Origin: Sinimarinibacterium sp. CAU 1509
Lineage (GTDB): Bacteria > Pseudomonadota > Gammaproteobacteria > Nevskiales > Nevskiaceae
Reading direction: 5' to 3'
DNA length: 32,000 nt
NCBI RefSeq assembly: GCF_005047655.1
Contig: NZ_SUKF01000001.1
Coordinates: forward strand, 119,394-151,393
The notes under the pieces were generated by a model. That model did not search any database, was not told the origin of the DNA, and worked only from the letters and a program-made list of their open reading frames with translations. Positions 2,533 through 30,865 of the stretch are shown one piece after another (the stretch's first letter is position 1; each line of letters opens with the position of its first letter). The translations under genes and the position numbers were made by a program.

Positions 2533-2680
2533 ATGCGGCGCGCCGCGGCGGGTGCCGTGGGTTTCCAGGCACACGGCGGATCGGTTCCGCTCGTCGGGAG
2601 CGTTCGCCGCCGGGTTTAGATCCGGCCGAGTCTGCCGCTATCGACCCTTATCGGGGTTGGTTTCGCGGCAGGGATTCGGC

Positions 2681-6769: not shown

Positions 6770-6972
6770 GCGGGTTTGGCGCATGCCGCGTGGTTGCTGC
6801 AGCACCTGTGCGGTATCGGCTTACTCGTTTCGGACGAGGCGGGGCGACAGTAGCCCACTACCATGGGCATGCCCGGGGCGTGCATTTGCCGCCGCCACCG
6901 GGATGCAGTGTTGAATTGTGGCGCAACCAAGATTCGGGGCGCGTGACGTTCCGGTGTGAGGAGGAGACGGTA

Positions 6973-8343: not shown

Positions 8344-8413
8344 GCCGGGCGCGACGCTGAGCAATCTGACGGGGCGGGCATTGCCCGCCCCATTTTCTTT
8401 GAGTGAGGTTGGG

Positions 8414-9280: not shown

Positions 9281-9290
9281 GGACGATCCC

Positions 9291-14950: not shown

Positions 14951-14995
14951 TACGGCGCGCACCCCGGAAGCACTCCCGTTCGCGCCACACATTTC

Positions 14996-15829: not shown

Positions 15830-15920
15830 AGGCGGGGCGGTACTGGCCCGCAGCACTTGATCGGGTCAGGGCTTCGGGTCCGCATGCGTTGACGAGTGGC
15901 CGTGTCTGGCCTTGTGCGTA

Positions 15921-15934
15921 GTGAAACTATTCAC
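15921..15934. promoter_or_regulatory. Small palindrome GTGAA-ACTA-TTCAC in the leader or promoter region upstream of xmoC
   Basis: 5-bp perfect inverted arms with a 4-bp spacer, about 125 nt upstream of the preferred xmoC start. It could arise by chance. Confidence 0.2.
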
Positions 15935-16057
15935 TATGGACATGCTTAAAAACCTGTGCAAAACTTCGGGTACATGGCTCCGTTCAGAAGAGCCAGGATG
16001 CCGTGGGGCTGTGTGATGGCTGACTCGAACCTGCGATATTTGGAAGGAGATCTACAA

Positions 16058-16876
16058 GTGACCACTTCAGTCGAAGCATCGGACGACGCTCACGACAGAG
16101 CGCTGCGTGCACCCTGGAAAGCGTTTTTTGGCATGTTGGCGTTTGCTGCGGCTGTCTTCGCCGCCTACCGCATCTATCAGCATGAAACTGCGTTTACGTT
16201 CGGATTGGACTACTTCAATCCGGAGTTCGCGACGTATTGGATGAGTGTGCTGTACTCCGAGCTCGCAATCGAAGTGCTCCTCGGTATCGCAATCGTCGGT
16301 TACCTCTGGATCACGCGCGATCGCAATCTCGACAAGATCACGCCCTCGGAAGAACTGCGACGCTATCTGGTGCTGATGAGTCAGCTCCTGATGTTCGGAG
16401 CAATTGCCTATGTGGTGACTTCGATCTACACCGAGTCCGATGCGGCCTGGCATCAGGTTACGGTGCGCGATACCGACTTCACTCCGACCCACATTGGGCT
16501 GTTCTACTTTGGCGTTCCTGTTTTCATCCTCAGTGTGCTGACTGCATTCGTCTACGCACGCACGCGCATCCCGGCGTTTGCGAAGCGGGTGTCGCTGCCG
16601 TTCGCGCTGCTGGTTGCCGGTCCGGTGATGATCATGCCGAACCTGGGCTTCAACGAGTGGGGGCACACGTTCTTCTACGCTGAGGAACTGTTTGCAGCGC
16701 CGATTCATTGGGGCTTCGTGCTGCTGGGTTGGGCCACCTTTGCGGCGGGCGGTTTGCTGGTGCAGATCCTGACCCGCGTCGTGCAGCTGACCCAGGTTGT
16801 TAGCTCGGCTGACGTTCAGCAGACCAACATCAAAAGTGAAGCTGCAGCCAATGCGGAGCTGAACGCGGCGGCCTGA
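16058..16876 (+). CDS. xmoC: Copper membrane monooxygenase subunit C (PmoC/AmoC family)
   Basis: FGLDYFNPEFATYWMSVLYSE and LWITRDRNL are family-typical. TESDAAWHQVTVRDTDFTPTH gives the D-x3-H-x12-H pattern. NEWGHTFFYAEELFAAPIHWGF gives the N-x3-H-x13-H pattern. Start preferred at GTG 16058, behind the strong SD GGAAGGAGA. In-frame alternatives are ATG 16016 and the track start at 15956. Confidence 0.9.
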   Translation: MTTSVEASDDAHDRALRAPWKAFFGMLAFAAAVFAAYRIYQHETAFTFGLDYFNPEFATYWMSVLYSELAIEVLLGIAIVGYLWITRDRNLDKITPSEELRRYLVLMSQLLMFGAIAYVVTSIYTESDAAWHQVTVRDTDFTPTHIGLFYFGVPVFILSVLTAFVYARTRIPAFAKRVSLPFALLVAGPVMIMPNLGFNEWGHTFFYAEELFAAPIHWGFVLLGWATFAAGGLLVQILTRVVQLTQVVSSADVQQTNIKSEAAANAELNAAA

Positions 16877-16904
16877 TCCAGGCCACGATCGCAGCGTTTG
16901 ACTC

Positions 16905-16930
16905 GGGGAGCCGCCTGCGTGCGGCTCCCC
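16905..16930 (+). other. GC-rich stem-loop in the xmoC-xmoA spacer (possible attenuator or mRNA-stability element)
   Basis: GGGGAGCCGC-CTGCGT-GCGGCTCCCC forms a perfect 10-bp stem. It is followed by CGCTTTATTC, then the SD GGGAG and ATG 16951. Confidence 0.5.
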
Positions 16931-16950
16931 CGCTTTATTCGGGAGCATCA

Positions 16951-17703
16951 ATGTCTCAGGAACTAACCGTATCGGCGGTGCGCAGCACCGCCGAGCAGCA
17001 CCGCGTGCATGTTCAAGTCGACTTGCTGGCGATTCCGCTGGTCGTCCTATTGTTTGCGGCCGTATTCAGTTTCCAGTTTGCGCTGCTGGTCGGTGACTGG
17101 GATTACTGGATCGACTGGCGCGATCGTCGCTGGTGGCCGCTGGTTACGCCGTTGGCATTGACCATCCTGCCGGCAGTCTTCAGCTACTTCCTGTGGGAGC
17201 GTCTGCGTCTACCGTTGGCGGCGACACTGACGATCCTCGCGCTGACCGCTGCAGCGTGGGTCAGTCGGTACCTGAACTTTCATCTCTTTGCGAACTTTCC
17301 GATGAACATGGTGTGGCCATCGGCATACATCGGTTTGGGTCTGATCGTGGACTGCATTCTGCTGCTGACCGGCAGCTTCTTCTGGACCGGGTTATTGGGC
17401 GGCTTTGCCTTCGCGGTGCTGCTCTACCCGATGAACTGGCCGCTGCTCGCGCCGTTTCAGGTGCCGCTCGAATTGCATGGGACGATGCTGACGGTGTCCG
17501 ATCTGATGGGCTTCGAGTACGTCCGCACAGCGATTCCGGAATACGTCCGCATCATCGAGCAATCCACGCTGCGTACCTTCGGCGAGGCAGTGACACCGTT
17601 GACCGCCGTGTTTGCCGGCTTCCTCAACATCATGAACTTCTGGTTCTGGACCTGGATCGGCTATCTCGGCAGCAAGGCCCTGTGGATCCGAAAGATCGTC
17701 TGA
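16951..17703 (+). CDS. xmoA: Copper membrane monooxygenase subunit A (PmoA/AmoA family)
   Basis: Family blocks are LLVGDWDYWIDWRDRRWWPLVTP and GFEYVRTAIPEYVRIIEQSTLRTFG. The protein is multi-TM and 250 aa long. The SD GGGAG lies 5 nt upstream of the start. Confidence 0.9.
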   Translation: MSQELTVSAVRSTAEQHRVHVQVDLLAIPLVVLLFAAVFSFQFALLVGDWDYWIDWRDRRWWPLVTPLALTILPAVFSYFLWERLRLPLAATLTILALTAAAWVSRYLNFHLFANFPMNMVWPSAYIGLGLIVDCILLLTGSFFWTGLLGGFAFAVLLYPMNWPLLAPFQVPLELHGTMLTVSDLMGFEYVRTAIPEYVRIIEQSTLRTFGEAVTPLTAVFAGFLNIMNFWFWTWIGYLGSKALWIRKIV

Positions 17704-17714
17704 GGAGAACAACA

Positions 17715-18956
17715 ATGATGAACCGACTGATCTCTTGGGCCTGTGCAGCACTTATCGTCCTGTCGAGTTTTACCGTCGCAATCGAGTCCGCCGAGGCGCA
17801 TGGCGAACGCGCCCAGATGCCGCAGTTACGCATGCGCTCCGTGCATTGGTTCGACGTCAACGTGTCGACAGTCGATATGCAGATCAACGACATCGTCAAG
17901 GTCACCGGCAGCTTCATGCCGTCGAAGTATTGGCCGGAGCATGTCCAGTCAATTGAAAAGACTGCCTTCCTGAACATCGGGGTGCCTGGGCCGTCATTTG
18001 TGCGGCTGGACTCGCGCGTCAATGGAGTGCCGATGATTCGATCGACGGCCTTCATGAAAGGTGAGCGGTACAACTTTGAAGTGACGCTCAAGGCGCGCAA
18101 GGTCGGACGTTATCACGTGCATCCGGTGATCAACGTCGAGGGAACGGGACCGATCATCGGGCCCGGACTGTGGGTTGACGTGGGCGGAGACGAGGCGGCA
18201 TTTGAAAACAGCGCGACGACCTTGCTCGGCCAGACCATCGACCTGGAAACCTACGGACTCCGCAATGCGGCGTTCTGGTCCGCGCTGTGGTTCGTGATCG
18301 GTCTGGCATGGTTTGCGTACTGGTTGTCGAAGTGTCCGATCGTGGTGCCGCGCTTCAAGCGGGTTGATGAGCTGGGCGTCGTCAATGCGGACAAGATCAT
18401 CACAACGACGGATCGCCGCGTCGGGTTTGTGTTTCTGGTGCTGACGCTGTCGCTGGTCACCGGCTCCTACATGTATACGCAGGAGAAATGGCCGATCACC
18501 ACGCCGTTGCAAACCGGCAAAGTCGAAGTGCCGCCGCTTGAGGCTGAGAGCATGCCGCTGAAGGTGCGGTTGACGGATGCACGCTACCGTATTCCGGGTC
18601 GCAGCTTCCGCATGGAGCTGGAAGTGACGAACTCTGGCGACAGTCCGGTCACGGTGGGTGAGTTTGCTGCGGGTAATCTGCGTTTCATCAACAGCGCGGT
18701 CTTGCAGGTGACGCCCAAGGATGAGGACGACTTGATTGCGGCAGATGCACTTCGCGTCGAGGGAGGCTCGGTTGCGCCGGGCGAAACCCGCACAATTGTC
18801 GTCTACGCCGACGATGCGCTGTGGGAGACTCAACGCATGACGACGATGATTGCGTCCCCGGATGCGTTGGTGGCCGGGCTTCTGTTCTTCTTCGATGCCA
18901 ATGGCGAGCGCTATCCTGTCGAAGTGGGTGGAATGATGATTCCGGAGTTCGTTTGA
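17715..18956 (+). CDS. xmoB: Copper membrane monooxygenase subunit B (PmoB/AmoB family)
   Basis: Start at ATG 17715 behind the SD GAGGAG. The signal peptide MMNRLISWACAALIVLSSFTVAIESAEA is followed by HGERAQMPQLRMRSVHWFDV. GRYHVHPVINVEGTGPIIGPG is present. Two central TM helices sit between two beta-rich domains. The 607-aa track ORF starting at 17133 is an out-of-gene extension over xmoA. Confidence 0.9.
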   Translation: MMNRLISWACAALIVLSSFTVAIESAEAHGERAQMPQLRMRSVHWFDVNVSTVDMQINDIVKVTGSFMPSKYWPEHVQSIEKTAFLNIGVPGPSFVRLDSRVNGVPMIRSTAFMKGERYNFEVTLKARKVGRYHVHPVINVEGTGPIIGPGLWVDVGGDEAAFENSATTLLGQTIDLETYGLRNAAFWSALWFVIGLAWFAYWLSKCPIVVPRFKRVDELGVVNADKIITTTDRRVGFVFLVLTLSLVTGSYMYTQEKWPITTPLQTGKVEVPPLEAESMPLKVRLTDARYRIPGRSFRMELEVTNSGDSPVTVGEFAAGNLRFINSAVLQVTPKDEDDLIAADALRVEGGSVAPGETRTIVVYADDALWETQRMTTMIASPDALVAGLLFFFDANGERYPVEVGGMMIPEFV

Positions 18957-19561
18957 TGACACGTCTGATGGGCCTGATGCTGGTTCTGCTCATGGCCGTG
19001 CAGTCCGGACCGACGGCAGCGCACGGCGGGGTCTCGGTCGAGGACGATGTCTGCATCATGCGCATCGGGCCATACCGGGCACATTTCACGGGCTATCAGC
19101 CGGAGTATCGTGCGACGCAGGAATTCTGCGAGGACATTCCGGTGGTGGCCAAGGCGATCATCGTGCTGGATTTCATCGACAACGTCCTGCGCGGTATGAG
19201 CGTCGAGTTCAATCTGCTGCGTGATACGGATGGATTGGGAGCGGCGGCACGCTTCGACCAGCTCGGCTCGATGCAGCAGATTCGTGAACGCAGTTTGTTC
19301 AACGTACCCGCAGCGACCTATCCGCGTGGAACGATTACCCTGGAGCCGACGCTGGATCAGTCGGGCTGGTATATCGGAGTTCTCAGTGCTACGGACCCAG
19401 AGACCGGTGGCACCCTGCACTCGGTGTTTCCATTCCGAGTCGGCGTGCGCAGCTACTGGCGTTACGGTGTTGCGCTGTTGGTGATCCTGGCGCTGTCAGT
19501 GCTGTTGTACCGTGTCAGCGGTCGAAAACGTGCTGGCGGCGCCTCGACCACCGCTGCGTGA
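18956..19561 (+). CDS. Membrane-anchored periplasmic protein in the PmoD/AmoD position. It has a predicted N-terminal His after signal cleavage and is a possible copper protein.
   Basis: ATG 18956 shares its A with the xmoB TGA (TGATG). The signal peptide MTRLMGLMLVLLMAVQSGPTAA is followed by HGGVSVEDDVCIMRIG. The soluble domain is about 150 aa. The C-terminal TM is YWRYGVALLVILALSVLLYRV, followed by a basic tail. The architecture matches PmoD/AmoD and YcnI-type proteins. I could not verify sequence homology. Confidence 0.7.
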   Translation: MTRLMGLMLVLLMAVQSGPTAAHGGVSVEDDVCIMRIGPYRAHFTGYQPEYRATQEFCEDIPVVAKAIIVLDFIDNVLRGMSVEFNLLRDTDGLGAAARFDQLGSMQQIRERSLFNVPAATYPRGTITLEPTLDQSGWYIGVLSATDPETGGTLHSVFPFRVGVRSYWRYGVALLVILALSVLLYRVSGRKRAGGASTTAA

Positions 19562-19603
19562 ATGCGGCTTCCGATGCTCAATAGAAGGCAGGCATAACCG
19601 CTG

Positions 19604-21187
19604 ATGGGCCGAGCGGAGTCCATGCTGCCCGTAGTCTGGATCACCAGCGTCGCAGCGCTGATGATCGCAGGGGTTGCAGCGCTGGTTGTGTTCGGGCCAA
19701 GTGCGCCACGATCCGTCGGTGGCGACACCGTGCCTGAGGATGCATGTCCGCCCGGGACGCCGGCCCACTGGCGTGACGCACAGACGATCGACGGCGTCGA
19801 GATCGAGGCCGATCCGTCCTGTGAGCCGGATGATCCGGCGGTTGTCGCTGCTGTGGTCAAGGGCACAAACCGTGCGGTGCAGGCGTTGATGGAAACCCGT
19901 CTCGCACGCGACGCGGTGATCAAGCGTAACGACCGCGACGGTGACGGTGATCCGGACGACATCGAGATCAAGCTCGAGGTCACCGAGCTCAACGGATTTT
20001 CACCGAACCTGGATGTGCCGTCGCTGCGTTACCCGATCGCTCCCGGCATCACGCCGGGCCTATGGGTGTTCTCGCCGAAAGTGCGCGGCATGTCGACGAC
20101 GAACTTCCTGAGCAATGACCCGCAGCCGTTGCTGCGTCTGCCGGCTCCGGTGATCCGAGTGGAGCAGGGCGACACGGTCACGATCACCCTGGAAAACACG
20201 CACTACTTTCCGCACACGATTCACCTGCACGGTGTCGATCATCCGTTCGTTCAGGCCGATGGCCAGGGGAATGACGGCGTGCCGATGATTAGCGAAATGG
20301 CGACATTGCCGGGCCAGCGACACAGTTACCGCTTTACGCCGCGCCAGACAGGGACCTTTTTCTACCACTGCCATGTACAGCCACAGGCGCACATCCTGAT
20401 GGGGCTGGCCGGCATGATCGTGGTTGAGGAGAACCGTCCCGACAACTGGTTGCAGACCTTCAACGTCGGTGCCGGCCGTGTGCGACATCGTTCGGTCGCT
20501 TCGCGCGAGCAATACGACCGTGAGTACGATCTGCACTACCAGGACATGGATCGCGAGCTGCACAACCTGATCCAGCATACCAATGACATTCGCTGGACGG
20601 CCAAGGCGATGAATCGCGATTACAAAATCGCCGAGCGGAGCGCTGAGTATCATCTGCTGAACGGGCATTCGTTTCCCTATACCCTGCGTGACTCCATGGT
20701 CGTCGTCGCGCCGGACGAGAACGTGAAGCTTCGCGTGATCAATACCGGGGCCGAGCCGATCTATCTTCATCCTCACGGGCACAAGCCGACGGTGACGCAC
20801 TACGACGGCGTCAGACTTTCGCAGTCGATCACACGTGATGTCTTCGAGATCGGGCCCGCGCAGCGTGCCGAGTTTGACCTGTCGACCGTAAACGACGGGC
20901 TGCATAGCTACGGTGAGGGCGCGTGGTTCATGCACGATCATCGAGAGCCCGGCATCACCACCGACGGCATCAGCCCCGGGGGTGACATCAGCCTCGTTGT
21001 CTACGAGACCTATTTGAATGCTGATGGCATGCCGAAGACTTACGGTAGCCTGGCGACGTTCTTCAATCCCGCGTACTACCGCGGGGAGATTCCGGTCTGG
21101 GCGGAGATGGCGCCGGATCTGTTCGGAGACCCCAACGTCCCCCAGGCCATGTGTACTTCCAATCCCAAACGGGACACTCAAAAATGA
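19604..21187 (+). CDS. Multicopper oxidase, apparently two-domain type with the type-1 site in the first cupredoxin domain. It has an N-terminal membrane anchor.
   Basis: The TM anchor is MLPVVWITSVAALMIAGVAALVVFG. Copper motifs are HTIHLHG, FFYHCHVQPQAHILMGLAGM, IYLHPHGH and WFMHDH, giving four HxH pairs and one Cys. An Asp-rich segment, NDRDGDGDPDD, lies in the N-terminal extension. Start is 19604 or ATG 19622. Confidence 0.85.
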   Translation: MGRAESMLPVVWITSVAALMIAGVAALVVFGPSAPRSVGGDTVPEDACPPGTPAHWRDAQTIDGVEIEADPSCEPDDPAVVAAVVKGTNRAVQALMETRLARDAVIKRNDRDGDGDPDDIEIKLEVTELNGFSPNLDVPSLRYPIAPGITPGLWVFSPKVRGMSTTNFLSNDPQPLLRLPAPVIRVEQGDTVTITLENTHYFPHTIHLHGVDHPFVQADGQGNDGVPMISEMATLPGQRHSYRFTPRQTGTFFYHCHVQPQAHILMGLAGMIVVEENRPDNWLQTFNVGAGRVRHRSVASREQYDREYDLHYQDMDRELHNLIQHTNDIRWTAKAMNRDYKIAERSAEYHLLNGHSFPYTLRDSMVVVAPDENVKLRVINTGAEPIYLHPHGHKPTVTHYDGVRLSQSITRDVFEIGPAQRAEFDLSTVNDGLHSYGEGAWFMHDHREPGITTDGISPGGDISLVVYETYLNADGMPKTYGSLATFFNPAYYRGEIPVWAEMAPDLFGDPNVPQAMCTSNPKRDTQK

Positions 21188-21630
21188 AAATTGGCAAGTT
21201 TGGATGGGTATTGCCCATCGTGATGTTCGGCCAGCTGGCTGCTGCCGGCGATGTGTTTGCAGAAGATGCCGCCAATGCTCATGCGCATCACATGCACATG
21301 GATCGCGGTGGAGACGACAGTCGCGTCCCGACGCCGGCAGGCATGTCGATCATGGTGACACAGCCGGCCGATGGTGCGCAGCTCGATGCCGACGCAGCGA
21401 TTCTGGTGCAGGTCGAGACCACCGGCATGGATGCCTCTGGCGATCACTGGCACCTGTATGTTGATGGTGAGCTCGTTGCGATGGTCGGTGGAGGCCGTAC
21501 GAAATATCAAATCGAGCCCGCGACCCTGGCGCCTGGTCGTCACGAGCTAAAAGTCACGATCTCCAACGCCAGTCATCACGAATACGCCGTGGAGCAGCGG
21601 CTGACGGTTTCGATCGGCAACGCGCCTTAA
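21184..21630 (+). CDS. Secreted His/Met-rich small protein, DUF4399-like (tentative), a putative periplasmic metal (copper) binder
   Basis: The ATGA start/stop overlap with the MCO gene lies at 21184-21187. The signal peptide is MKIGKFGWVLPIVMFGQLAAAGDVFA. Next comes NAHAHHMHMD. The remaining pattern is QPADGAQL...SGDHWHLYVDGELV...LAPGRHELKVTISNASHHEY, which matches my memory of the DUF4399 pattern (P-DGA...HHHL-ID...L-pG-H-L). Confidence 0.7.
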   Translation: MKIGKFGWVLPIVMFGQLAAAGDVFAEDAANAHAHHMHMDRGGDDSRVPTPAGMSIMVTQPADGAQLDADAAILVQVETTGMDASGDHWHLYVDGELVAMVGGGRTKYQIEPATLAPGRHELKVTISNASHHEYAVEQRLTVSIGNAP

Positions 21631-21650
21631 TCTCGCCGCGGATTTCGCAC

Positions 21651-22247
21651 GTGCGTTCGCATTCGCTCCGCCGGGTTCACTTCAGGCTCGCTCTGCTGCT
21701 TGCTGTTGCGGTGCTGTCGTCGTCGCCGATGGTGTGGAGTGCCGATGCGGGTCAGCCCGCGCACGATGGGCCAGGGCATCGCATGATCTGGGACGCCAGC
21801 GGCATGGTCATGGGCGAGAACCAGGGCGATGAACTGCCGCGTGGCTGTGCACAAATCAGTGGTGATGTCGAGATTACCGTGCATGTTGGCCGCCGTTATG
21901 CGCCCGCGGGCTACGTGCTCGGTTACAGTCAGTACGAATGGCGGGTGCCCAAGTGCAGTCGGCTGCATGTCACTCTGATCAACGAAGACCAGGTGCGGCA
22001 TATGTGGATGCTGCACGGGCTGCCGAAATATCTGTACCACGAAGGCATGTTCCATCTCGAGGTCGAGGGTGAGCGGCGCATGACCGGCACCTTCATTGTG
22101 CCCAGCGATGACCGTACCTATTTCGTGCACTGTGACATTGCGCAGCACACGGAGAAAGGTTTGATCGCGCAGCTCAAGGTTGGTCGCGGTGACGGCGATC
22201 TGCCCGGTGTTCCGGGAATCTCCAAACCGCTGTTCCGCGAACGCTAG
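21651..22247 (+). CDS. Secreted cupredoxin-like (type-1 copper-like) protein with Leu at the usual axial Met position
   Basis: The GTG start is at 21651. The signal-like N-terminus is MRSHSLRRVHFRLALLLAVAVLSSSPMVWSA. LHVTLINEDQVRHMWMLHG supplies the upstream His. YFVHCDIAQHTEKGLIAQLKV gives C-x4-H-x4-L where cupredoxins normally have C-x(2-4)-H-x(2-4)-M. Confidence 0.7.
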   Translation: MRSHSLRRVHFRLALLLAVAVLSSSPMVWSADAGQPAHDGPGHRMIWDASGMVMGENQGDELPRGCAQISGDVEITVHVGRRYAPAGYVLGYSQYEWRVPKCSRLHVTLINEDQVRHMWMLHGLPKYLYHEGMFHLEVEGERRMTGTFIVPSDDRTYFVHCDIAQHTEKGLIAQLKVGRGDGDLPGVPGISKPLFRER

Positions 22248-22550
22248 CGCTGCTGCGGGTCAGGTCGCCACGCGTCGCCAGCGCGAGAATTTTCACCCTG
22301 GGGTTCGATATGCGATCGTATCGTCTCGCGACGAAGCAGCGCGCGATACGCATCTCTGCGGCAGCCCATGACGCTGCAGCAAGATTGCCGCCTTGAGCAG
22401 CGCTTGGGTCGTGGTGATTTTCCGCGGACAAGATCGGCGCGATCCATTGGGCCCACCGGAGCAGGCAGCCACCGCGGCGTGACAGTGGATGCTCAGCGTG
22501 CATCCCCATCAGTGGTCTGCGGGATGTGGTGACGATGCTGCCGTCGCAAC

Positions 22551-22601: not shown

Positions 22602-24230
22602 TCAAGCAGCCTGCGACATGTCCATGGCTGCGGGCTGGTTCTGTTGCAGCATCATCCGGGCGGCCATCTCGCCGATCACCATTGCCGGCGCGTTGGTATT
22701 GCCGCCGATCAGGGTCGGCATGATCGAGGCGTCGGCAACGCGCAGGCCTTCGATGCCATGCACGCGCAACTGCGCGTCGACAACCGCCATCGCATCCGGT
22801 CCCATCTTGCAGGTGCCGACCGGGTGATAGATGGTCTCGGCACGCTTGCGGATGTCGGCGAGAATCGCTTCGTCGCTTTGCGCTGCCGAACCGGGTTCGG
22901 TTTCGCCGCCATTGGTGGTGGCGAATGCGGGCGATGCAAAGATGCGACGGGCCAGCCGAACCGACGCGATCAGTGCGGCGCGATCGTCCGGATGTTCCAG
23001 GTAGTTCGGCTGAATCAGCGGTGCGGCCATCGGATCGGCGCTCTTGAGGCCGATGTAGCCGCGACTCTTCGGACGCAACTGGCAAACATGCAGGGTGCAG
23101 CCGTAACCCGGGACCAGCTTGCGACCATGATCCTTGAGGAAGCTCGGCAGGAAATGGAACTGGATGTCAGGGCGCTCGGAGTCCTTTGACAGCTTGGCGA
23201 AGCCACCGCCTTCAGCGACATTGCTGGCAAGCATGCCGCGGCGTCCGAAGATATAGCGGAACAGTGCGGCGATTGCGCGGGGTACAAAGGAAAGTGCCAG
23301 ACCGAATGCGCGCTTGCTGCGATCGCGGATCATCACCGTCATGTCGAGATGATCCTGCAGGTTCTGTCCGACACCCGGAAGCTCGTGCACCACCTTGATG
23401 CCGTGCTGTTCGAGTTCTTTCCTGGGGCCGATTCCGGACAGCATCAGCAGTTGCGGCGAATTCACTGCGCCGCCGCACAACACCACTTCACGCTGTGCGC
23501 TCAGATGTCGCTTTTGCCCGTTTTGGACAACGACTTCAATTCCGACCGCACGCTTACCTTCCATCAGCACGCGCGTGGCATGTGCACCGGTCAGCACCGT
23601 CAGGTTCGGTCGGGATCTCGCGTTTTCAAGGAACGCCCGGGCGCTGCTCCAGCGGCGTCCATCCTTCTGCGTGACCTGATAAAGGCCGACGCCTTCCTGT
23701 TCCACGCCGTTGAAGTCGGGGTTGTACGGCAGCCCGGCCTGTTTGGCGGCTTCGATGAAGACCTGCGACAACGGGTTGGGGTCGCGCACATCGGCGACGT
23801 TCAGCGGGCCGCCGGTGCCATGTGAGCGCGACGGTCCGCGCTCGTTGTTCTCGTGCGCCTTGAACAGCGGAAGCAGATCATCGTGGCTCCAGCCGGGATT
23901 GCCCTGATTGGCCCAGTCGTCATAGTCGCGGGCATGTCCGCGGATGTAGACCATCGCATTGATCGAACTGCTGCCACCCAGGGTCTTGCCGCGAGGCCAG
24001 AACAGTTTGCGCTGATCAAGCTGTGCCTGTGGTTCGGTGTCGAAGCACCAGTTATAGGTCTTGCTGCCGATCAGGCCGATCACGCCCAGTGGGGTGTGGA
24101 TCAAGGCGCTGGAATCCGGCGGGCCGGCTTCGATCAGGCACACGCGATGTCGTGGGTTCGCGCTGAGGCGATCCGCCAGAACGCAACCGGCCGAGCCGGC
24201 ACCAACGATAACGTAGTCGAATTCATTCAC
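22602..24230 (-). CDS. GMC-family FAD oxidoreductase (choline/alcohol dehydrogenase; AlkJ-like)
   Basis: The N-terminus is MNEFDYVIVGAGSAGCVLADRLSANP. Also present are GKTLGGSSSINAMVY and the C-terminal block HPVGTCKMG...VHGIEGLRVADASIMP. The SD GGAGGA lies upstream of the start. Confidence 0.9.
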   Translation of the reverse strand: MNEFDYVIVGAGSAGCVLADRLSANPRHRVCLIEAGPPDSSALIHTPLGVIGLIGSKTYNWCFDTEPQAQLDQRKLFWPRGKTLGGSSSINAMVYIRGHARDYDDWANQGNPGWSHDDLLPLFKAHENNERGPSRSHGTGGPLNVADVRDPNPLSQVFIEAAKQAGLPYNPDFNGVEQEGVGLYQVTQKDGRRWSSARAFLENARSRPNLTVLTGAHATRVLMEGKRAVGIEVVVQNGQKRHLSAQREVVLCGGAVNSPQLLMLSGIGPRKELEQHGIKVVHELPGVGQNLQDHLDMTVMIRDRSKRAFGLALSFVPRAIAALFRYIFGRRGMLASNVAEGGGFAKLSKDSERPDIQFHFLPSFLKDHGRKLVPGYGCTLHVCQLRPKSRGYIGLKSADPMAAPLIQPNYLEHPDDRAALIASVRLARRIFASPAFATTNGGETEPGSAAQSDEAILADIRKRAETIYHPVGTCKMGPDAMAVVDAQLRVHGIEGLRVADASIMPTLIGGNTNAPAMVIGEMAARMMLQQNQPAAMDMSQAA

Positions 24231-24409
24231 TGTGCAGTCCTCCAGGATATGCCCGCGTTGGCTGGTGTTTCGACTCGGCCCGCCGACAACTGTCGACGGG
24301 CCGAATCCGAGCGGGGCGCCTGGCCACCTTCAGGGTGGAGCGCACCCTGCCGCAGCGGGGGCAATCTGGATAATTGACCGGTGAATGCCGCTTGTCCCCT
24401 ATCGATCGA

Positions 24410-24901
24410 TCAGGTCGGGTCGATTTGCGGACGTCGCAATGCCTTCCATGCAATTGTTGCGGTAATCAGCATGACCAGCACGACGCCGACATAGAACAGG
24501 AAGAATGCGATCTGGTTGGTGGCCGGGCCGCCAAACTCCAGACCGCGACTGTGCGGGAACAGCGGATCGAGCAGGGAGGCGATGACGAAGGTCCAGGCCA
24601 CCACGATCAGTCCGTGCGCAGTGCGTTTGCGGCCAAGGGTCGACAGCGGGATCAAGGGCAGCACTGCGGCGGCCAGCCATAGCGCGAAGCCGTTGATGAT
24701 GCCTTCGAGATGTGCCATGCGCCATGCATCGTAGGTGCCGGGCAGCTGCACCTCGATGACGCCGGGAATCGGCCACAGCGTGATGTGACCGATCAGAAAG
24801 AACAGAAAGCCGAAGCCAATGGCTCCGCCCGCGAAAATCAGGAGTGCGCCGTGGCCGATCAGGTGGCGGCGAGCGTCCGCAATAGGGTCGGCCGAGCTCA
24901 C
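24410..24901 (-). CDS. Four-TM integral membrane protein resembling styrene-oxide isomerase (StyC/SOI-like, tentative)
   Basis: The preferred GTG start at 24901 overlaps the upstream stop (GTGA). The protein is 163 aa with 4 predicted TM helices. The segments IGHGALLIFAG, IPGVIEVQLPGTYDAWRMAHLEGIINGF and SRGLEFGGP parallel GHGILMIF, IPGYILEFHVPGSPEGWARAHSGPALNGM and RGLTFGP of Pseudomonas StyC as I remember it. The shared His-x5-Asn spacing is included. Confidence 0.55.
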   Translation of the reverse strand: MSSADPIADARRHLIGHGALLIFAGGAIGFGFLFFLIGHITLWPIPGVIEVQLPGTYDAWRMAHLEGIINGFALWLAAAVLPLIPLSTLGRKRTAHGLIVVAWTFVIASLLDPLFPHSRGLEFGGPATNQIAFFLFYVGVVLVMLITATIAWKALRRPQIDPT

Positions 24902-25803
24902 GCGGCGTCTCGAGAGGGGGTGCTTGCGAACGGCACCGCCATCAGCGGGTCCAGGGTATCGAGCAGCGGCACACCGGGTGCTGCACTGCGGTCGTAGCCC
25001 CGCAGCCAGTCCAGAACCCATTCCGGATCGCGTTCACGGCGCGGACTATTACCCGGGAGCGCTGCGCGCAAGAGATAGGGTCCAACGTGACGGATGAATC
25101 GACCGATCCGGACGGCCAGGCGCAGGCGTGAACGCAACTGGTTCCAGCGACCGTCCTTCTTCAGGATCGCCCGGTATCCCTGCATCGAATAGCGCATGAC
25201 ATCGAATGAGCCATGGAACACGCCAATCATGCGCGCCCAGTAACTGCCGAGAGAGGTGCCGAAAGCGGCCTGATAGACGTCATAGGCGACACACTTGTGC
25301 TCGGTTTCCTCGACCATGTGCCACAGCACGAAGGACACCACGCGCGGATCCGCGCCGTGAAACAGCTCGACACGGTGCTCGACCAGCCAGCGCGTGACGC
25401 CCAGGGTCATCGACTCGAAACCGGCGGTGTAAGCCATGCGCGTGCGGAGCGAACGCTGCGACAGGCGCGCGTATGACGCTTCCATCTGCTGCTCCACCTC
25501 GGCCAGTTCGGGATATCCGTGGTTCTTCAGCAGATCGTTGAAACGCCGGTGCGTGCGGAAGTGCTGGCCTTCCTGGGCCATGAAGCCCTCGCCGTCGGCT
25601 TGCAACGAAGCGTCGTCAATGCGCGCCAATGTTTCACGCATCGTGCGAATCAGAAAGGGTTCCAGGTACGGCATCGTCAATGACGCGCCATTGAGCATGG
25701 CGGCGAACTCCGGATCCTTGGGCATCCAGTTCGTCTGCATGCCTTCGGGAAACTCGAAAGGAATGCGGCGTGCGGTCAGTGCAGGGGATGGGTTCGTGCT
25801 CAT
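24898..25803 (-). CDS. Predicted metal-dependent hydrolase family protein (PF10118-like)
   Basis: IPFEFPEGMQTNWMPKDPEFAAMLNGASLTMPYLEPFLIRTMRE...GFMAQEGQHFRTHRRFN follows the pattern of this family as I recall it. It overlaps the upstream TetR gene by 4 nt (ATGA). Confidence 0.65.
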   Translation of the reverse strand: MSTNPSPALTARRIPFEFPEGMQTNWMPKDPEFAAMLNGASLTMPYLEPFLIRTMRETLARIDDASLQADGEGFMAQEGQHFRTHRRFNDLLKNHGYPELAEVEQQMEASYARLSQRSLRTRMAYTAGFESMTLGVTRWLVEHRVELFHGADPRVVSFVLWHMVEETEHKCVAYDVYQAAFGTSLGSYWARMIGVFHGSFDVMRYSMQGYRAILKKDGRWNQLRSRLRLAVRIGRFIRHVGPYLLRAALPGNSPRRERDPEWVLDWLRGYDRSAAPGVPLLDTLDPLMAVPFASTPSRDAA

Positions 25804-26513
25804 TTAGGAGGCTCCTCTGGTATCGCAACGCCGGGGCGTGCGGCTGCTGCTGTGTTTTTTGTCTTGCTGGTCTTGCGCGGCGGTGAGTCGGCGCTGAGTT
25901 GAGGGTGCTGCAGGCCGGCCATCAGCGTGGCGATCATGGTTGGCACCAGGGCGTCGATCGTGCGACCCATGACGAATTGCCCCGCGACCTGCAGCGACAC
26001 CAGGCCATGCGCGCCGGCCCAGAACAGATGGCTCGCGGTCAGCGGATCGGTTGTCAGCTGCAGTGCGCCGCTGTTGTGCGCTGCGGTGACGACCTTGGTG
26101 CACACCCCCAACGAATCGCGCTTGGCCGCGGCCAGCTCCAGTGAGCGCTGGCCCAGATCGCTGCCCTCAAGTTCGAAGAACATCAGTGCATAGCGATTCG
26201 GACGCTCCAGGCCTGCGCGGATATAGGCGTCGGCCAGGACGTTGAGTTGCGTCAGCGGTTCGGTGTACGGGGCAATCGCTTCCAGCATGGCCTGTTCGAT
26301 CCAGCGATATGCCCTCGCCCTCAGTGCTGTAACCAATTCCTCCTTGCTGGAGAAATAGCGGTACGGAGCGGAATAGCTGCACCCCAGCAGTGACGAGATC
26401 TTGCGGAAGCTGACAGCGGACAGCCCGCTGTCTTCGAACAGCTGCATCGCAGCGTCCAGGATCTGTTCGCGTTTGGATTCGACCTGCTCGGCGGAAAAGG
26501 TTTGACGTGCCAT
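25800..26513 (-). CDS. TetR/AcrR-family transcriptional regulator
   Basis: The HTH is REQILDAAMQLFEDSGLSAVSFRKISSLLGCSYSAPYRYFSSKEELV. It is the first gene of a minus-strand unit, divergent from the RND transporter gene. Confidence 0.85.
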   Translation of the reverse strand: MARQTFSAEQVESKREQILDAAMQLFEDSGLSAVSFRKISSLLGCSYSAPYRYFSSKEELVTALRARAYRWIEQAMLEAIAPYTEPLTQLNVLADAYIRAGLERPNRYALMFFELEGSDLGQRSLELAAAKRDSLGVCTKVVTAAHNSGALQLTTDPLTASHLFWAGAHGLVSLQVAGQFVMGRTIDALVPTMIATLMAGLQHPQLSADSPPRKTSKTKNTAAAARPGVAIPEEPPK

Positions 26514-26514
26514 G

Positions 26515-26548
26515 GACGGTGTTGTACCAGCATTAAGTTAACACCGTC
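26515..26548. promoter_or_regulatory. Inverted repeat GACGGTGTT-N16-AACACCGTC abutting the TetR start codon; a candidate operator or 5' RNA hairpin
   Basis: Perfect 9-bp arms read from the sequence. The AT-rich 16-nt spacer contains GTTAAC. It sits in the divergent TetR/RND intergenic region. Confidence 0.4.
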
Positions 26549-26769
26549 AAATTAATTGAGGAGCGAGTCCTCCAAAGGCTGGAGGGGTGTCGAAACCTTC
26601 CCGTCCGGTAGGGCTCGGTCGGCGGCGAGGTGGGCAAACCTAACTTTTGTTAGGCGTCGCATTGCCTTGGCGCACTTAGCGTTGCATTCGGAGCTGACAC
26701 CACCGAATTCAGGTGGTCTGGCCATAGAGCAGTTGACCCAAACCGCATGGGTCGACGCATGAAATAGCG

Positions 26770-29388
26770 ATGCGGGGAGAGCAAGCAGTGCACGCAGACA
26801 GCCGAAGCAAGTTCGCGCAGTTGTTCGTACGCGTTACCGAGCCAATGATCTTCAATCGTCGCTGGGCGACGTTGCTGTTTCTTGGGTTGGCGACGTTGTT
26901 CTTTGGCTATCACGCCACGCAGCTGCGCATGGATACCGGTTTCGACAAGCAGCTGCCGCTGGGGCATCCCTACATGGGCATCTACCACCAGTATCAGGGC
27001 GAGTTTGGCGGCGCCAATATCGTGCTGCTGGCGGTGATACAGAAGCAAGGTGACATCTATACCGCCGATTTCATGACCTCGCTGCGTCAGGCCACTGATG
27101 CGGTGTATTTCACCCCGGGCGTCGATCGCTCGCGCGTCAGCTCGCTGTTCACGCCGAACGTGCGCTACATGGAAGTGGTGGAGTCCGGCTTCCAGGGCGG
27201 CAACGTGGTCCCGGCCGACTTCAAGCCAACGCCGGAAATGCTGGCCAAGGTGCGTTCCAACGTCGCCAAGTCCGATATCCGCGGGCGCCTGGTCGCCAAT
27301 GATCAGTCCGCCGCGATGGTGGTGTCCGAGCTGCTGGAAAAGGATCCGGTCACCGGAGTCAAGCTCGACTACATCGATACGGCTCACCGTCTGGAACAGG
27401 TGCGCAATCGGTTCATTTCGCCCACCAAAGTCGAGTACCTTGCCAAGACTGATGTCGGTCCCTTCAAGAAGGGCGATATCGTCAAGACCGAATACAAGGA
27501 CACGCGGAACTGGGCGTTCCCCATCATGCACGTGACCGTCGACTCCGGCGAGACCGACGTTGCTCCGGTGCGGTTCCGCGGCTACCAGCTCGACGTACGC
27601 ACGGTTGAGAATCCGGACTACAACCCGAATATCGATATCGCAATCATCGGCTTCGCCAAGGCCGTCGGTGATATCGCGGACAGTGCGGTCGAAGTCTTCA
27701 GCTTCTTTGGCCTGACCCTGATTCTGGTGTGGTTGCTGCTGTGGCAGTACTGCGGCTCGCCCTCCATTGCGCTTCTGCCTCTGATTTGCGGCGTGCTCGC
27801 GGTGGTATGGGAACTCGGCATGCTGCAGCTGTTCGGTTTCGCGCTCGATCCTTTTGCGGTGCTGATGCCCTTCATTGTCCTCGCGATCAGTACGTCGCAC
27901 GGCATCCAGATCACCAACTTCTGGCTTAATGAAGTGGCCGACAATGGCTTGTCGAGCTTCGAGGCTTCGCGTGCGACCTATCGACGGTTGGTGATTCCCG
28001 GCATTTCCGCCCTGCTCACCAACTTCGTCGGTTTCGGCACGATTCTGCTGATCCCGATCGGGATCATCCAGGAGATGGCAATCAACGCCATGTTCGGCCT
28101 GATGGCGATCGTGCTGTGCAAGAAAGTCCTGCTGCCGTGCCTGCTGTCGTTCGCGCCGATGAAGAATCCGGCCAAATTCCGCGAGCATCAGAAGAGCCGC
28201 GACCGTTTCTTCGCACCGATCTGGCGCACGCTGTCGGTCATTACCAAACGTCCGGTGGCTGCTGTGGTTCTGCTGGCAGCGGTTGGCTTGTGGGGTTGGG
28301 CCGAGTACGTCTCGCAGGATCTGAAGATCGGTGAGCTGCATGAAGGTGTGCCGGAGCTGCGTCCAAACGCACGCTACAACCAGGACTCACGCACGATCAC
28401 CGGCGCCTTCTCGATCGGTGTGGATGTCATCAAGCTGATTTCCGAGTCACATGCCGACGGTTGTATTGATCACGCCGTCATGGACAAGATCGATGAGTTC
28501 GCCTGGCGGATGGAAAACGTCGAGGGCGTGCAGTCGACCATGTCGCTGGCAAAAACTTCGCGTGCCGTTTTCAACGCCTACAACGAGAACAATCCGAAGT
28601 GGTTCGTGTTGCCGCGTGAATCGGGCGCCTTGGTGGTGACGGTGCAGCCGTTCCCGAGTTCAACCGGCCTGCTCAACGAAGATTGCAGCGCGATTCCGAT
28701 CCTGGTGTATTCCAAGGACCACAAGGCAGAGACCATCGATCGCATCGTCTTCGCCGCGCAGTCGTTTATCGACGCGCAACCTGCAGATGCCCCGGTGACG
28801 TTCCGTCTGGCAACGGGCAACGTCGGCGTGATGGCTGCGGCTAACGATGTGATCAAGGAAACCGAATCCAAGGTGTTGCTGTGGCTGTTCCTCGGCATCG
28901 GTGTTTGCGTGCTGATGTCTTTCCGCAGCTTCGCTGGACTTGTTTGCGTGCTGGTACCGCTGGCACTGGTTTCGGTGCTGTCCTATGCGGTCATGGTTTA
29001 TCTGCAGATCGGCATCAAGGTGTCGAACCTCGCTGTTGCGGCGTTTGCTGCAGGTATCGGTGTTGACTACGGCATCTACATTTACAGCGTGCTCGAAGAA
29101 TGCGTGCTGAACCGCGGCATGCCGCTGCGCAAGGCCTATGAGGAAACGCTGCATCAGACCGGCAAGGCGGTGATTGTGACCGCGCTGACGCTGGCGGCCA
29201 GTGTCTGCACCTGGTTCTTCTCGGGTCTTCAGTTCCAGATCGACATGGGCATTCTGCTGACGATCATGTTCATCGCCAATGCGGTCGCCGCAGTGGTGCT
29301 GCTGCCGGCGTTCGCAGCATTTCTGCTGCGGGCCAAGCCGACGCAGGCCGAGGTGGAGCCGATGGATTCGGCAGCAGCGCCGATCTGA
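26770..29388 (+). CDS. RND-superfamily transporter with MMPL-type domains (COG1033-like exporter of hydrophobic compounds)
   Basis: The protein is 872 aa with two clusters of about 5-6 TM helices separated by large periplasmic loops. GVDYGIYIYSVLEE and GKAVIVTALTLAASV are typical of this family. It is co-located with DUF1329 and DUF1302, its usual partners. Confidence 0.85.
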   Translation: MRGEQAVHADSRSKFAQLFVRVTEPMIFNRRWATLLFLGLATLFFGYHATQLRMDTGFDKQLPLGHPYMGIYHQYQGEFGGANIVLLAVIQKQGDIYTADFMTSLRQATDAVYFTPGVDRSRVSSLFTPNVRYMEVVESGFQGGNVVPADFKPTPEMLAKVRSNVAKSDIRGRLVANDQSAAMVVSELLEKDPVTGVKLDYIDTAHRLEQVRNRFISPTKVEYLAKTDVGPFKKGDIVKTEYKDTRNWAFPIMHVTVDSGETDVAPVRFRGYQLDVRTVENPDYNPNIDIAIIGFAKAVGDIADSAVEVFSFFGLTLILVWLLLWQYCGSPSIALLPLICGVLAVVWELGMLQLFGFALDPFAVLMPFIVLAISTSHGIQITNFWLNEVADNGLSSFEASRATYRRLVIPGISALLTNFVGFGTILLIPIGIIQEMAINAMFGLMAIVLCKKVLLPCLLSFAPMKNPAKFREHQKSRDRFFAPIWRTLSVITKRPVAAVVLLAAVGLWGWAEYVSQDLKIGELHEGVPELRPNARYNQDSRTITGAFSIGVDVIKLISESHADGCIDHAVMDKIDEFAWRMENVEGVQSTMSLAKTSRAVFNAYNENNPKWFVLPRESGALVVTVQPFPSSTGLLNEDCSAIPILVYSKDHKAETIDRIVFAAQSFIDAQPADAPVTFRLATGNVGVMAAANDVIKETESKVLLWLFLGIGVCVLMSFRSFAGLVCVLVPLALVSVLSYAVMVYLQIGIKVSNLAVAAFAAGIGVDYGIYIYSVLEECVLNRGMPLRKAYEETLHQTGKAVIVTALTLAASVCTWFFSGLQFQIDMGILLTIMFIANAVAAVVLLPAFAAFLLRAKPTQAEVEPMDSAAAPI

Positions 29389-29497
29389 AGCAGAAGAAGA
29401 TTCGATACCAGCGGCGCCACCACAGGTGTGGTGGCCGCCGGACAGGGAAGATAGAAGCAAAAAGCTCGCTAGGGCTTTCCACGACAGGAGAAGAAAA

Positions 29498-30865
29498 GTG
29501 TTGAGGACGACGAAACTGACGGTGCCAGCGCTGCTGGCCACCTTACTGCTGGCAACAACGGGGGCATCCGCGAAGGTTTCGCCGGAGGAGGCCGCGCGGC
29601 TGGGCAAGGACCTGACACCGGTCGGCGCCGAGCGCGCCGGCAACAAGGACGGCACGATCCCGGCATGGACCCCGGCTGAGAAGCACGGTGCGATGAAGGG
29701 CGAGTACGCAAGCGATCCTGCGTTGGCGAATGAAAAGCCGCTGTTTACGATCACGGCTGCCAACGTCGCGCAATATGCCGACAAGCTGACTGAAGGGCAC
29801 AAGGAACTGATGAAGCGGTACCCGGACACGTACAAGATGAACGTGTACAAGTCCTACCGCAAGGTGAACTACCCGCAGAAGATTCTCGACGAAACCGTCA
29901 AGAATGCGACGCGCGCGGAGCTCGAGGGCGTCGACAATCCGAAGGGTGCGTATGTCGGATTCCCGTTCCCGATTCCGAAGTCAGGTGCAGAGCCGATCTG
30001 GAACCACCGCACAAAATGGCGCGGCAACGCCCAGCGTCGTTTCAACAACCAGATGATCGTGCAGCAGGACGGCAAGTTCACGCTGACCAAGATCGTCGAG
30101 GACGTGAAGTTCTATTATTCGAACATCGACGAAGCGAACCCGCCTGAACTGAAGCCGGGCGTCGACTTTCTGCGTTATCTGTCCGAAACGATCTCGCCGC
30201 CCCGCATTGCCGGAACCTACATTCTGGTGCATGAAAAGGCCGGCTTCGGTACGGAAGGCCGTGCTGCATGGCTCTACGCCCCGGCGCTGAAGCGCATTCG
30301 CCGCGCCCCGGCCGTGTGCTGCGACAACCCGTACGAAGGAACGGATGGTCATCAGTTCTACGATCAGGTCGACATGTACAACGGCGTGCTCGAACGCTTC
30401 ACCTGGAAGTTGGTGGGCAAGCGCGAGATCTACATTCCGTACAACTCGTACAAGATGGCCAGCCCTCCGACCAAGTATGCGGACATTGCAGCGCCGAACC
30501 ATGTCAATCCAGAACTGCCGCGTTACGAGCTGCATCGTGTCTGGGTGGTCGAGGCCGACAACAAGCCGGATCAGCGTCACACCTTCAAGAAGCGCGTGAT
30601 CTACTTTGACGAAGACTCCTGGAACATCGTCGCGATCGACGACTACGACCAGCAGGACAAGCTGACCGAGTTCCAGGAAGGCCACCTGATTCAGTACTTC
30701 AACATCCTGGCAGCGACCACGCAGCCGGAAGTGATCTATCACTTCAATTCCGGGCGTTACTTCGTTACCGCGATGAACAACGAAGATCAGCCGTACGATC
30801 AGTCAGTGACGTTCAGCGACAGCGATTTCGAAGCCAATACGGTTCAGAAGAAGGCATCCAAGTAA
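29498..30865 (+). CDS. DUF1329-family periplasmic protein, copy 2
   Basis: The GTG start at 29498 sits behind the SD AGGAGAAG. There is no in-frame ATG before the conserved region. The signal peptide is VLRTTKLTVPALLATLLLATTGASA. Family blocks are EEAARLGKDLTPVGAERAGNKDGTIPAW, KPLFTITAANVAQYADKLTEGHKELMKRYPDTYKMNVY, IRRAPAVCCD and YELHRVWVVEA. Confidence 0.85.
   Translation: MLRTTKLTVPALLATLLLATTGASAKVSPEEAARLGKDLTPVGAERAGNKDGTIPAWTPAEKHGAMKGEYASDPALANEKPLFTITAANVAQYADKLTEGHKELMKRYPDTYKMNVYKSYRKVNYPQKILDETVKNATRAELEGVDNPKGAYVGFPFPIPKSGAEPIWNHRTKWRGNAQRRFNNQMIVQQDGKFTLTKIVEDVKFYYSNIDEANPPELKPGVDFLRYLSETISPPRIAGTYILVHEKAGFGTEGRAAWLYAPALKRIRRAPAVCCDNPYEGTDGHQFYDQVDMYNGVLERFTWKLVGKREIYIPYNSYKMASPPTKYADIAAPNHVNPELPRYELHRVWVVEADNKPDQRHTFKKRVIYFDEDSWNIVAIDDYDQQDKLTEFQEGHLIQYFNILAATTQPEVIYHFNSGRYFVTAMNNEDQPYDQSVTFSDSDFEANTVQKKASK

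Follow-up and report, generated by a model that had tools for sequence, protein, structure and literature searches.

We analysed a 32,000-nucleotide stretch of the Sinimarinibacterium sp. CAU 1509 genome (referred to as the window), which carries at 24410 to 26513 a cassette of three overlapping genes. These encode a TetR-family regulator, a PF10118 protein that bears the name of a hydrolase, and a small membrane protein related to styrene oxide isomerase (SOI; StyC). The features of the locus, in the direction of transcription, are as follows.

26514 to 26560, minus strand: promoter/operator-like block, directly 5' of the TetR ATG.
25800 to 26513, minus strand: TetR-family regulator gene (TetR_N and TetR_C_33 domains), the first of the three overlapping genes.
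24898 to 25803, minus strand: PF10118 gene, 301 amino acids (aa), named "predicted metal-dependent hydrolase", all-helical in an AlphaFold2 (AF2) model.
24410 to 24901, minus strand: SOI-like gene, 163 aa, GTG start; a predicted SOI-family heme-b-type four-helix membrane protein of an "E/S-type" clade.
24231 to 24409, minus strand: intergenic region of 179 nt between the SOI-like and GMC genes.
22602 to 24230, minus strand: GMC flavoprotein oxidoreductase gene of the choline-dehydrogenase subfamily, probably AlkJ-like.

The GTG start of the SOI-like gene overlaps the stop codon of the PF10118 gene (GTGA), and the PF10118 gene overlaps the TetR gene (ATGA). This translational coupling, and the 179-nt spacing to the GMC gene on the same strand, had been described correctly in an earlier reading of this DNA (the original prediction). 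Pfam analysis of the TetR protein identified an N-terminal helix-turn-helix (HTH) domain (PF00440, E = 2.6e-12) and a C-terminal ligand domain (PF13305, E = 5.9e-16). The 163-aa protein is identical to the NCBI hypothetical protein E4T66_00660 of Sinimarinibacterium sp. CAU 1509. No second SOI paralog is present in the window, and Pfam scans of the window open reading frames (ORFs) detected no flavin styrene monooxygenase; the styA/styB/styD context of StyC is therefore missing here.

The original prediction had placed the 163-aa, four-helix ORF in the SOI family from shared StyC motifs. This placement is borne out by matches that are all significant, far beyond chance. The protein matched the NCBIfam StyC model (NF045734) with an E value of 9.1e-14 and a score of 51.7 bits, covering model positions 1 to 147 of 147, and it matched the StyC cryo-EM structure PDB 8pnu with an E value of 8.5e-10 by phmmer; a 28-sequence profile matched the same structure at 1.3e-15. 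Identity to StyC was 30.7% across 153 aa (BLASTP). When the AF2 model of the protein (pLDDT, 81.7) was submitted to Foldseek, 8pnu_A was the sole significant PDB match (E = 1.3e-6; TM-score, 0.78/0.81; root mean square deviation, 2.9 Å). Four helices were found by both a hydropathy scan and the AF2 model. The predicted motifs GHGxLxIF, IPGxI...PGxxxxWxxAH-x5-NG and RGLxFG are all present and align with StyC in HMMER alignments. Pfam PF26512 ("SOI"; precomputed as PF26512.2) is assigned to the identical database protein P0001 and to all of its homologs. The score of 51.7 bits lies below the 150-bit equivalog cutoff of the StyC model, which makes the protein a member of the SOI family but no StyC equivalog. 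We conclude that it is a true yet divergent relative of SOI/StyC. The superfamily as a whole is small, with 276 representatives at 50% identity among 1.84 billion proteins. Across it the His, the Asn and the Arg-Gly-Leu motif are nearly universal, and Asn99/Tyr103 (StyC numbering) mark only part of it.

In StyC, His58 is the axial ligand of a ferric heme b, which leaves its sixth coordination site open and serves as the Lewis acid, not as an electron carrier; the N64A and D95A replacements impair the enzyme, whereas N99A and Y103A abolish its activity completely (PMC11374702). Heme binding requires the equivalent His, and a heme propionate is stabilised by the Arg of the RGL motif (Arg111 in RoSOI1) (PMC12502698). 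All three heme-site residues are kept in the SOI-like protein. His64 aligns with StyC His58 and does not vary within the clade or the superfamily, Asn70 aligns with StyC Asn64 (second transmembrane helix [TM2], hydrogen-bond network 1) and is likewise invariant, with the His-x5-Asn spacing preserved as had been predicted, and Arg119 of an SRGL motif is the equivalent of StyC Arg112. By analogy with StyC, heme b is probably bound where the protomers of a trimer meet, with His64 as its ligand.

StyC positions 95, 99 and 103 are Val, Phe and Ser, respectively, in the SOI-like protein. The original prediction had noted that the expected Tyr near TM3 is not evident, and indeed this helix contains no Tyr or Asn at all, so the loss of Asn99 and Tyr103 stands under either alignment. 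The Asp95 position is Val, Ile or Thr in the clade and also is unconserved in the Tyr-containing SOIs of the sister system described below. Arg56 of StyC is Met in the clade, and Glu66, two residues after the His, is invariant where StyC has Gly60. By helix periodicity, Glu66 would share a helix face with the conserved Asn, one turn away from it, and may sit in the distal pocket. Together these positions give the clade signature W-M-H-E-N-[VIT]-W-[IFL]-[SA]-R at StyC positions 54/56/58/60/64/95/97/99/103/112, found in ~80 species. The residue pattern suggests that the chemistry of the clade may differ from that of StyC.

The conservation of the neighbourhood was assessed in 80 species-representative genome loci with members of this clade (clade 1), together with three loci from contig look-ups. 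The loci were searched with the window proteins, and all neighbouring ORFs were clustered. In 70 of 84 loci the gene immediately upstream, in the same orientation, encodes a PF10118 protein; the median gap is -4 nt, and the same 4-nt overlap as in the window is present in 23 loci. Most of the exceptions are contig ends, Oceanococcus loci (TetR and SOI only) or Erythrobacter-type loci with a divergent arrangement. The taxa represented, which include Gamma- and Alphaproteobacteria, are Nevskiales, Halieaceae, Porticoccaceae, Salinisphaerales, Lysobacteraceae, Shewanella, Zavarzinia, Hyphomonadaceae, Erythrobacteraceae, Myxococcota, Actinomycetota and a spirochaete metagenome-assembled genome (MAG). 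No neighbour other than PF10118 was conserved across them. The upstream regulator is of the TetR family in 26 loci (and in 6 more that lack PF10118), MerR-MEDS in 10, PadR in 7 (plus 3) and AraC in 5, and none was detected in 22 clade 1 loci. A GMC gene after the cassette was seen only in the window and in two Nevskiales relatives, which marks it as a lineage-specific addition. It is the upstream PF10118 gene that is conserved as the partner of the SOI-like gene, and not a copper membrane monooxygenase (CuMMO) encoded nearby, and a functional PF10118-SOI partnership is very probable.

The original prediction had described the partner as a PF10118-like metal-dependent hydrolase. The family assignment stands, since the 301-aa protein matched PF10118 (Metal_hydrol) with 183.7 bits against a gathering cutoff of 33.2 (E = 6.3e-54). 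The part of a hydrolase bystander does not, given that the gene is the conserved partner and its product carries a diiron motif. Among 23 PF10118 homologs, E48, Q77-E78-x-x-H81, E130 and H162-x-x-E165-E166-x-E168-H169 are invariant, and the same Glu/His set also is invariant in PF10118 paralogs of only 25 to 29% identity. In the all-helical AF2 model (pLDDT, 88.4), these residues fall on four helices: E48 on helix 31-59, E78 and H81 on helix 65-94, E130 on helix 119-142, and E165, E166 and H169 on helix 153-181. The predicted core helices therefore present the E...ExxH...E...ExxH ligand set of ferritin-like diiron carboxylate proteins. The additional invariant His162 generates an HxxxExxH pattern, which we take to be the one also seen in heme-oxygenase-like diiron oxidases. 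The best PDB matches of the model in Foldseek were R2-like ligand-binding oxidases, followed by ribonucleotide reductase R2, acyl-acyl carrier protein desaturases and the toluene-4-monooxygenase hydroxylase. PF10118 resembles these ferritin-like diiron proteins in its all-helical bundle and ligand pattern and differs from them in sharing only 12 to 14% identity, with weak structural scores and no match at the sequence level. A literature search on the function of PF10118/COG3687 returned nothing relevant. From its invariant residues and its predicted structure, the protein is probably a ferritin-like diiron oxidase/oxygenase despite its name.

A second PF10118 paralog, 25 to 29% identical to the window protein, is present in a Bermanella locus (L080) and a Nevskiales locus (L044). 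A metagenome scan with this paralog yielded 80 loci of a sister clade, many on short contigs, and an SOI-family protein is encoded in 64 of them. The pairing with PF10118 is therefore near-universal in two deep clades. The sister-clade SOIs keep His58, Asn64, Asn99 and Tyr103, the sole exception being a clade 1-type ORF in L136. Three arrangements were seen. In type I loci, one strand carries the genes for an AlkS/MalT-like regulator, the SOI and an aldehyde dehydrogenase (ALDH), and transcribed away from them are those for PF10118, a rubredoxin and a rubredoxin reductase; the rubredoxin is canonical (for example, L080, 11903 to 12118), and the reductase carries an Rbx_binding domain. In type II loci (~40 loci), PF10118 is followed immediately by the SOI. 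Type III loci contain an SOI, an ALDH, an AMP-dependent ligase, a 2Fe-2S ferredoxin, a ferredoxin reductase, PF10118 and a MalT-like regulator. Clusters of the sister type are sited at L080 (8608 to 13408), L084 to L103, L124 and L146.

The redox partners and the ALDH distinguish the two clades in number. Among the 80 sister loci, rubredoxin was found in 25, a reductase in 19, 2Fe-2S ferredoxin in 10, ALDH in 20 and a MalT-like regulator in 23; the corresponding counts among 83 clade 1 loci were 2, 3, 1 (ferredoxin), 5 and 2. The sister clusters appear to encode a sty-like pathway, previously undescribed, whose oxygenase is not a flavin enzyme. The epoxide-to-aldehyde idea of the original prediction gains indirect support at the family level from these PF10118/SOI genes that are accompanied by ALDH, acyl-CoA ligase and redox partners. 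In L044, L131 and L136 the two systems stand in tandem (clade 2 PF10118, clade 1 PF10118 and then the Glu/Ser-type SOI), which suggests that they have related roles.

Taken together, we propose that 24410 to 26513 is a repressor-controlled, self-contained oxygenase-isomerase cassette built on the logic of StyAB/StyC, and we give this full model an even chance of being correct. At the membrane, the PF10118 protein would oxygenate, most simply by epoxidation, a hydrophobic substrate that derives from a hydrocarbon or lipid and is probably unsaturated. An SOI-like trimer would then turn the oxygenated intermediate into a carbonyl compound by a rearrangement in which its ferric heme serves as the Lewis acid. 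In this lineage, the product could be processed further by the GMC dehydrogenase encoded downstream and by other dehydrogenases. The TetR protein would free the operon once a hydrophobic ligand appears.

Several observations weigh against this model. Across ~80 clade members, Asn99 is replaced by Ile, Phe or Leu and Tyr103 by Ser or Ala; with both residues lost and a score of 51.7 against 150 bits, a Meinwald-type reaction is not assured. The Foldseek matches of PF10118 to diiron proteins have E values of 0.06 or worse and TM-scores of ~0.45 (with probabilities of up to 1.0), and sequence and profile searches of the PDB matched PF10118 to no solved structure. No reductase, rubredoxin or ferredoxin is encoded near the window cassette or most clade 1 loci. 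A literature search found no assayed member of the SOI-like clade.

The main rival to the model is that the SOI-like protein is a membrane anchor and/or heme-b electron-transfer subunit of a PF10118 diiron oxidase/oxygenase and does not act as an isomerase. It would account for the loss of the substrate-positioning residues Asn99, Tyr103 and Asp95 while the heme-binding residues are kept, for the lack of a reductase, rubredoxin or ferredoxin in the cassette, and for the tight translational coupling, which suggests a stoichiometric complex; SOI also has been proposed before as a membrane anchor for pathway partners (PMC12502698). Nevertheless, we consider it unlikely. The sister PF10118 proteins occur with soluble redox partners and with SOIs that have the full catalytic set, so that the ancestral role of the pairing looks catalytic. 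Moreover, the open sixth site of the StyC heme is that of a Lewis acid and not of an electron carrier (PMC11374702), and the conserved Asn at the Asn64 position and the invariant Glu, both of which would lie near the distal heme pocket judging from helix periodicity and the StyC structure, hint at catalysis. It is rather improbable that the SOI-like enzyme instead serves general detoxification of epoxides from any source, with PF10118 acting downstream or in parallel, for example, on the aldehyde, and forming no epoxide. Oceanococcus loci with TetR and an SOI-like gene but no PF10118 would fit this, and ferritin-like diiron enzymes that act on aldehydes exist (e.g., aldehyde-deformylating oxygenase); however, PF10118 comes first and is coupled in 70 of the 84 loci, and the sister clade already has an ALDH for the aldehyde. 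It is highly improbable that PF10118 acts as a metal-dependent hydrolase after all, with the pairing due to some unrelated membrane process. The Pfam/COG name and the weak Foldseek E values to diiron proteins speak for this reading, but the family was named by prediction only, its invariant motif is of the diiron carboxylate type, and the rubredoxin or ferredoxin systems with reductases beside the sister members would be needless for a hydrolase.

The original prediction had linked the SOI-like gene to CuMMO and ALDH genes that also lie in the window.

~15956 to 18956, plus strand: CuMMO genes, 5.5 kb from the SOI-like gene, in a convergent, separate transcription unit.
9291 to 10805 and 10870 to 12333: two ALDH genes, 12 to 15 kb from the SOI-like gene.

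According to that prediction, the SOI-like enzyme would detoxify aliphatic epoxides that arise when the CuMMO co-oxidises alkenes, and the resulting aldehydes could pass to the two ALDHs. CuMMOs epoxidise alkenes, the protein belongs to the SOI family and retains the heme ligand, and the CuMMO genes, 5.5 kb away, are part of an apparent hydrocarbon-oxidation island (ALDHs, WS/DGAT, GMC, RND/DUF1329). In addition, judged from the StyC structure, the residues at positions 95, 99 and 103 (Val/Ile/Thr, Ile/Phe/Leu and Ser/Ala) may line a pocket that is more hydrophobic than that of StyC and would thereby suit aliphatic substrates. We nonetheless regard this shunt as quite improbable, and any dependence of the cassette on the CuMMO as equally doubtful. 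In none of the 83 related loci, that of the same-genus S. flocculans (L012) included, do pmoCAB genes occur within 10 kb. A locus from a Nevskiaceae MAG (L004; ~85% nucleotide identity) is collinear with window positions 29378 to 22529, from the RND gene through the GMC gene, and again at the MerR/WS-DGAT genes. In the slot between, the window has an ~8-kb block (14388 to 22529) of esterase-like, CuMMO (pmoCAB-like), multicopper oxidase (MCO) and cupredoxin genes, whereas L004 (6900 to 11090) has genes for an AurF-like diiron protein, an FNR/2Fe-2S reductase and a second MerR. Two different oxygenase systems have been swapped at one site, and the CuMMO thus occupies a variable slot beside an independently conserved cassette. 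Furthermore, the CuMMO and SOI-like units are convergent and separately regulated (MerR versus TetR), the ALDH genes, which had been called adjacent, are 12 to 15 kb distant and are explained by the ordinary alkane-alcohol-aldehyde-acid route, and the shunt ignores the conserved PF10118 partner. The proximity of the CuMMO is specific to the Sinimarinibacterium sp. CAU 1509 genome and should not be read as a functional link in annotation; the CuMMO is no conserved source of substrate for the SOI-like protein. Of the original prediction, SOI family membership, the heme-site residues and the TetR-PF10118-SOI unit stand; the CuMMO link and the hydrolase bystander are not supported.

The oxygenase-isomerase cassette that we propose can be set against known systems. 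The likeness of the SOI-like protein to StyC of Pseudomonas sp. VLB120 (PDB 8PNU/8PNV) extends to the four-helix fold (TM-score, 0.8; ~31% identity), the heme His, the Asn six residues on, the Arg of RGL, and the GHG and W-x-x-x-H motifs. It differs in having PF10118 as its partner in place of styA/styB/styD, and its relatives are annotated as hypothetical proteins. As in the styrene side-chain pathway (StyAB, StyC and StyD), the oxygenase gene immediately precedes the SOI-family gene. The sister clade shows the full logic of that pathway, with oxygenase and redox partners, SOI, ALDH and sometimes acyl-CoA ligase. The window cassette, in contrast, has a putative diiron PF10118 protein rather than a flavin monooxygenase and no ALDH or redox partners, and its substrate probably is not styrene. 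The sister PF10118 genes also recall the AlkB/AlkG/AlkT/AlkS system, in that they occur with rubredoxin, rubredoxin reductase and AlkS/MalT-type regulators in oil degraders such as Bermanella. PF10118 itself is all-helical with no detected relationship to AlkB, and the window cassette is without rubredoxin, reductase or AlkS partners.

To our knowledge, SOI is the only enzyme known for the Meinwald rearrangement and is a sought-after biocatalyst, and its characterised members act on aryl epoxides in styrene catabolism. A large clade with a remodelled distal pocket and a Tyr-containing sister clade outside sty operons would widen both the biology of the SOI fold and its substrate range. All clade members are annotated as hypothetical proteins, and the PF10118-SOI partnership is a more interesting lead than the CuMMO shunt; the pairing is the first functional lead for PF10118/COG3687, pointing to an oxygenase rather than a hydrolase. 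A literature search found no paper that pairs SOI with PF10118, COG3687 or rubredoxin systems, and a search on Sinimarinibacterium monooxygenases returned nothing relevant. None of the assayed SOIs ZcSOI, NrSOI and StSOI could be assigned to clade 1. The primer-encoded termini of ZcSOI (MSQADVTL..., ...QKVMVG... and ...QSKD) matched 0 of 419 retrieved proteins and differ from those of the Zavarzinia clade member P0050, which suggests that ZcSOI is probably a different paralog.

The occurrence of the cassette in Nevskiales, Halieaceae, Porticoccaceae, Bermanella, Zavarzinia and Hyphomonadaceae suggests that, in communities that degrade hydrocarbons, it may be the marker of a pathway for alkenes or related lipids. 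A broader proposal, which we put forward tentatively, is that the PF10118 "hydrolases" are unrecognised rubredoxin- or ferredoxin-dependent diiron oxygenases, possibly alkene epoxidases, and obligate partners of SOI heme isomerases. They would constitute a widespread non-flavin oxygenase-isomerase-ALDH route for unsaturated hydrocarbons or lipids in marine and soil degraders. The clade of the window would be a derived one, in which a Glu has replaced the Asn/Tyr pair and which acts on another substrate or carries out another heme-Lewis-acid reaction.

Upstream of the TetR ATG, the sequence TTGACGGTGTTAACTTAATGCTGGTACAAC (26521 to 26550) is conserved in L004 and L005. It consists of TTGACG, an 18-nt spacer and TACAAC. 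A 9-bp inverted repeat, GACGGTGTT/AACACCGTC, at 26515 to 26523 and 26540 to 26548 spans this putative promoter. The distance from the -10-like hexamer to the ATG is ~7 nt, so the transcript may be leaderless. From its sequence, the block is plausibly an autoregulated promoter plus operator that yields an almost leaderless transcript; a simple sigma-70 scan gave no consensus match, this block included. Between the SOI-like and GMC genes, a terminator scan detected none that was convincing and no T-tract terminator. Conservation with L004 and L005 is higher in a block of ~50 nt right after the SOI-like stop codon (~24355 to 24409) than elsewhere in the spacer. Farther on, at 24272 to 24307, the window has a 17-nt palindrome, in place of which L004 has a different one. 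The block and the palindrome, 5' of the GMC gene, may be a regulatory element or an RNA hairpin. A sigma-54 promoter in the conserved block was rejected by eye, as its spacing is wrong.

Several other features of the related loci were noted. A MerR-family HTH domain fused to a MEDS domain is encoded upstream of the cassette in L070 (8240 to 9049) and nine other loci of the Halieaceae and Porticoccaceae type. MEDS has been proposed as a sensor of simple hydrocarbon derivatives, and several regulators with MEDS domains or of the AlkS-like and AlkR-like types respond to hydrocarbons or their derivatives. The Oceanococcus loci that have TetR and the SOI-like gene without PF10118 are L001, L002, L014, L018 and L022 (~7742 to 10483); in these, the divergently transcribed gene for an Asn/Phe-type SOI paralog overlaps one for a double SnoaL/NTF2-like protein, a fold that includes limonene epoxide hydrolase. 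A second SOI paralog also follows the clade 1 SOI gene directly in L026, L028, L030, L033, L040, L041, L047, L050 to L053, L060 and L080, and has either Asn99/Tyr103 or Asn99/Phe103. Mixed SOI trimers are conceivable because each heme sits between two protomers. In L044, a Nevskiales MAG, the clade 1 PF10118 gene (7810 to 8841) is split by an in-frame stop or frameshift and is either a pseudogene or an assembly error. PF10118-SOI fusions were sought among the long superfamily hits; those with domains were unrelated chimeric gene models, and the rest had no Pfam match.

Elsewhere in the window, the region downstream of pmoB (19604 to 22247) encodes a 527-aa multicopper oxidase, a 159-aa Ig-like/DUF4399-like ORF and a 198-aa ORF with a weak cupredoxin match (Cu-oxidase_2), which may assist the CuMMO in copper handling or electron transfer. 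On the flanks of the region are two DUF1329 (LolA-like) genes and a gene for an RND/MMPL (HAE3-like) transporter (6790 to 8343, 26770 to 29388 and 29279 to 30865). With the WS/DGAT gene (12527 to 13981), a short-chain dehydrogenase/reductase gene and the two ALDH genes, the neighbourhood looks like an island of hydrocarbon and wax-ester metabolism. At 2483 to 5050, the window encodes an 855-aa protein with Ser/Thr protein kinase, HDOD and GAF domains.

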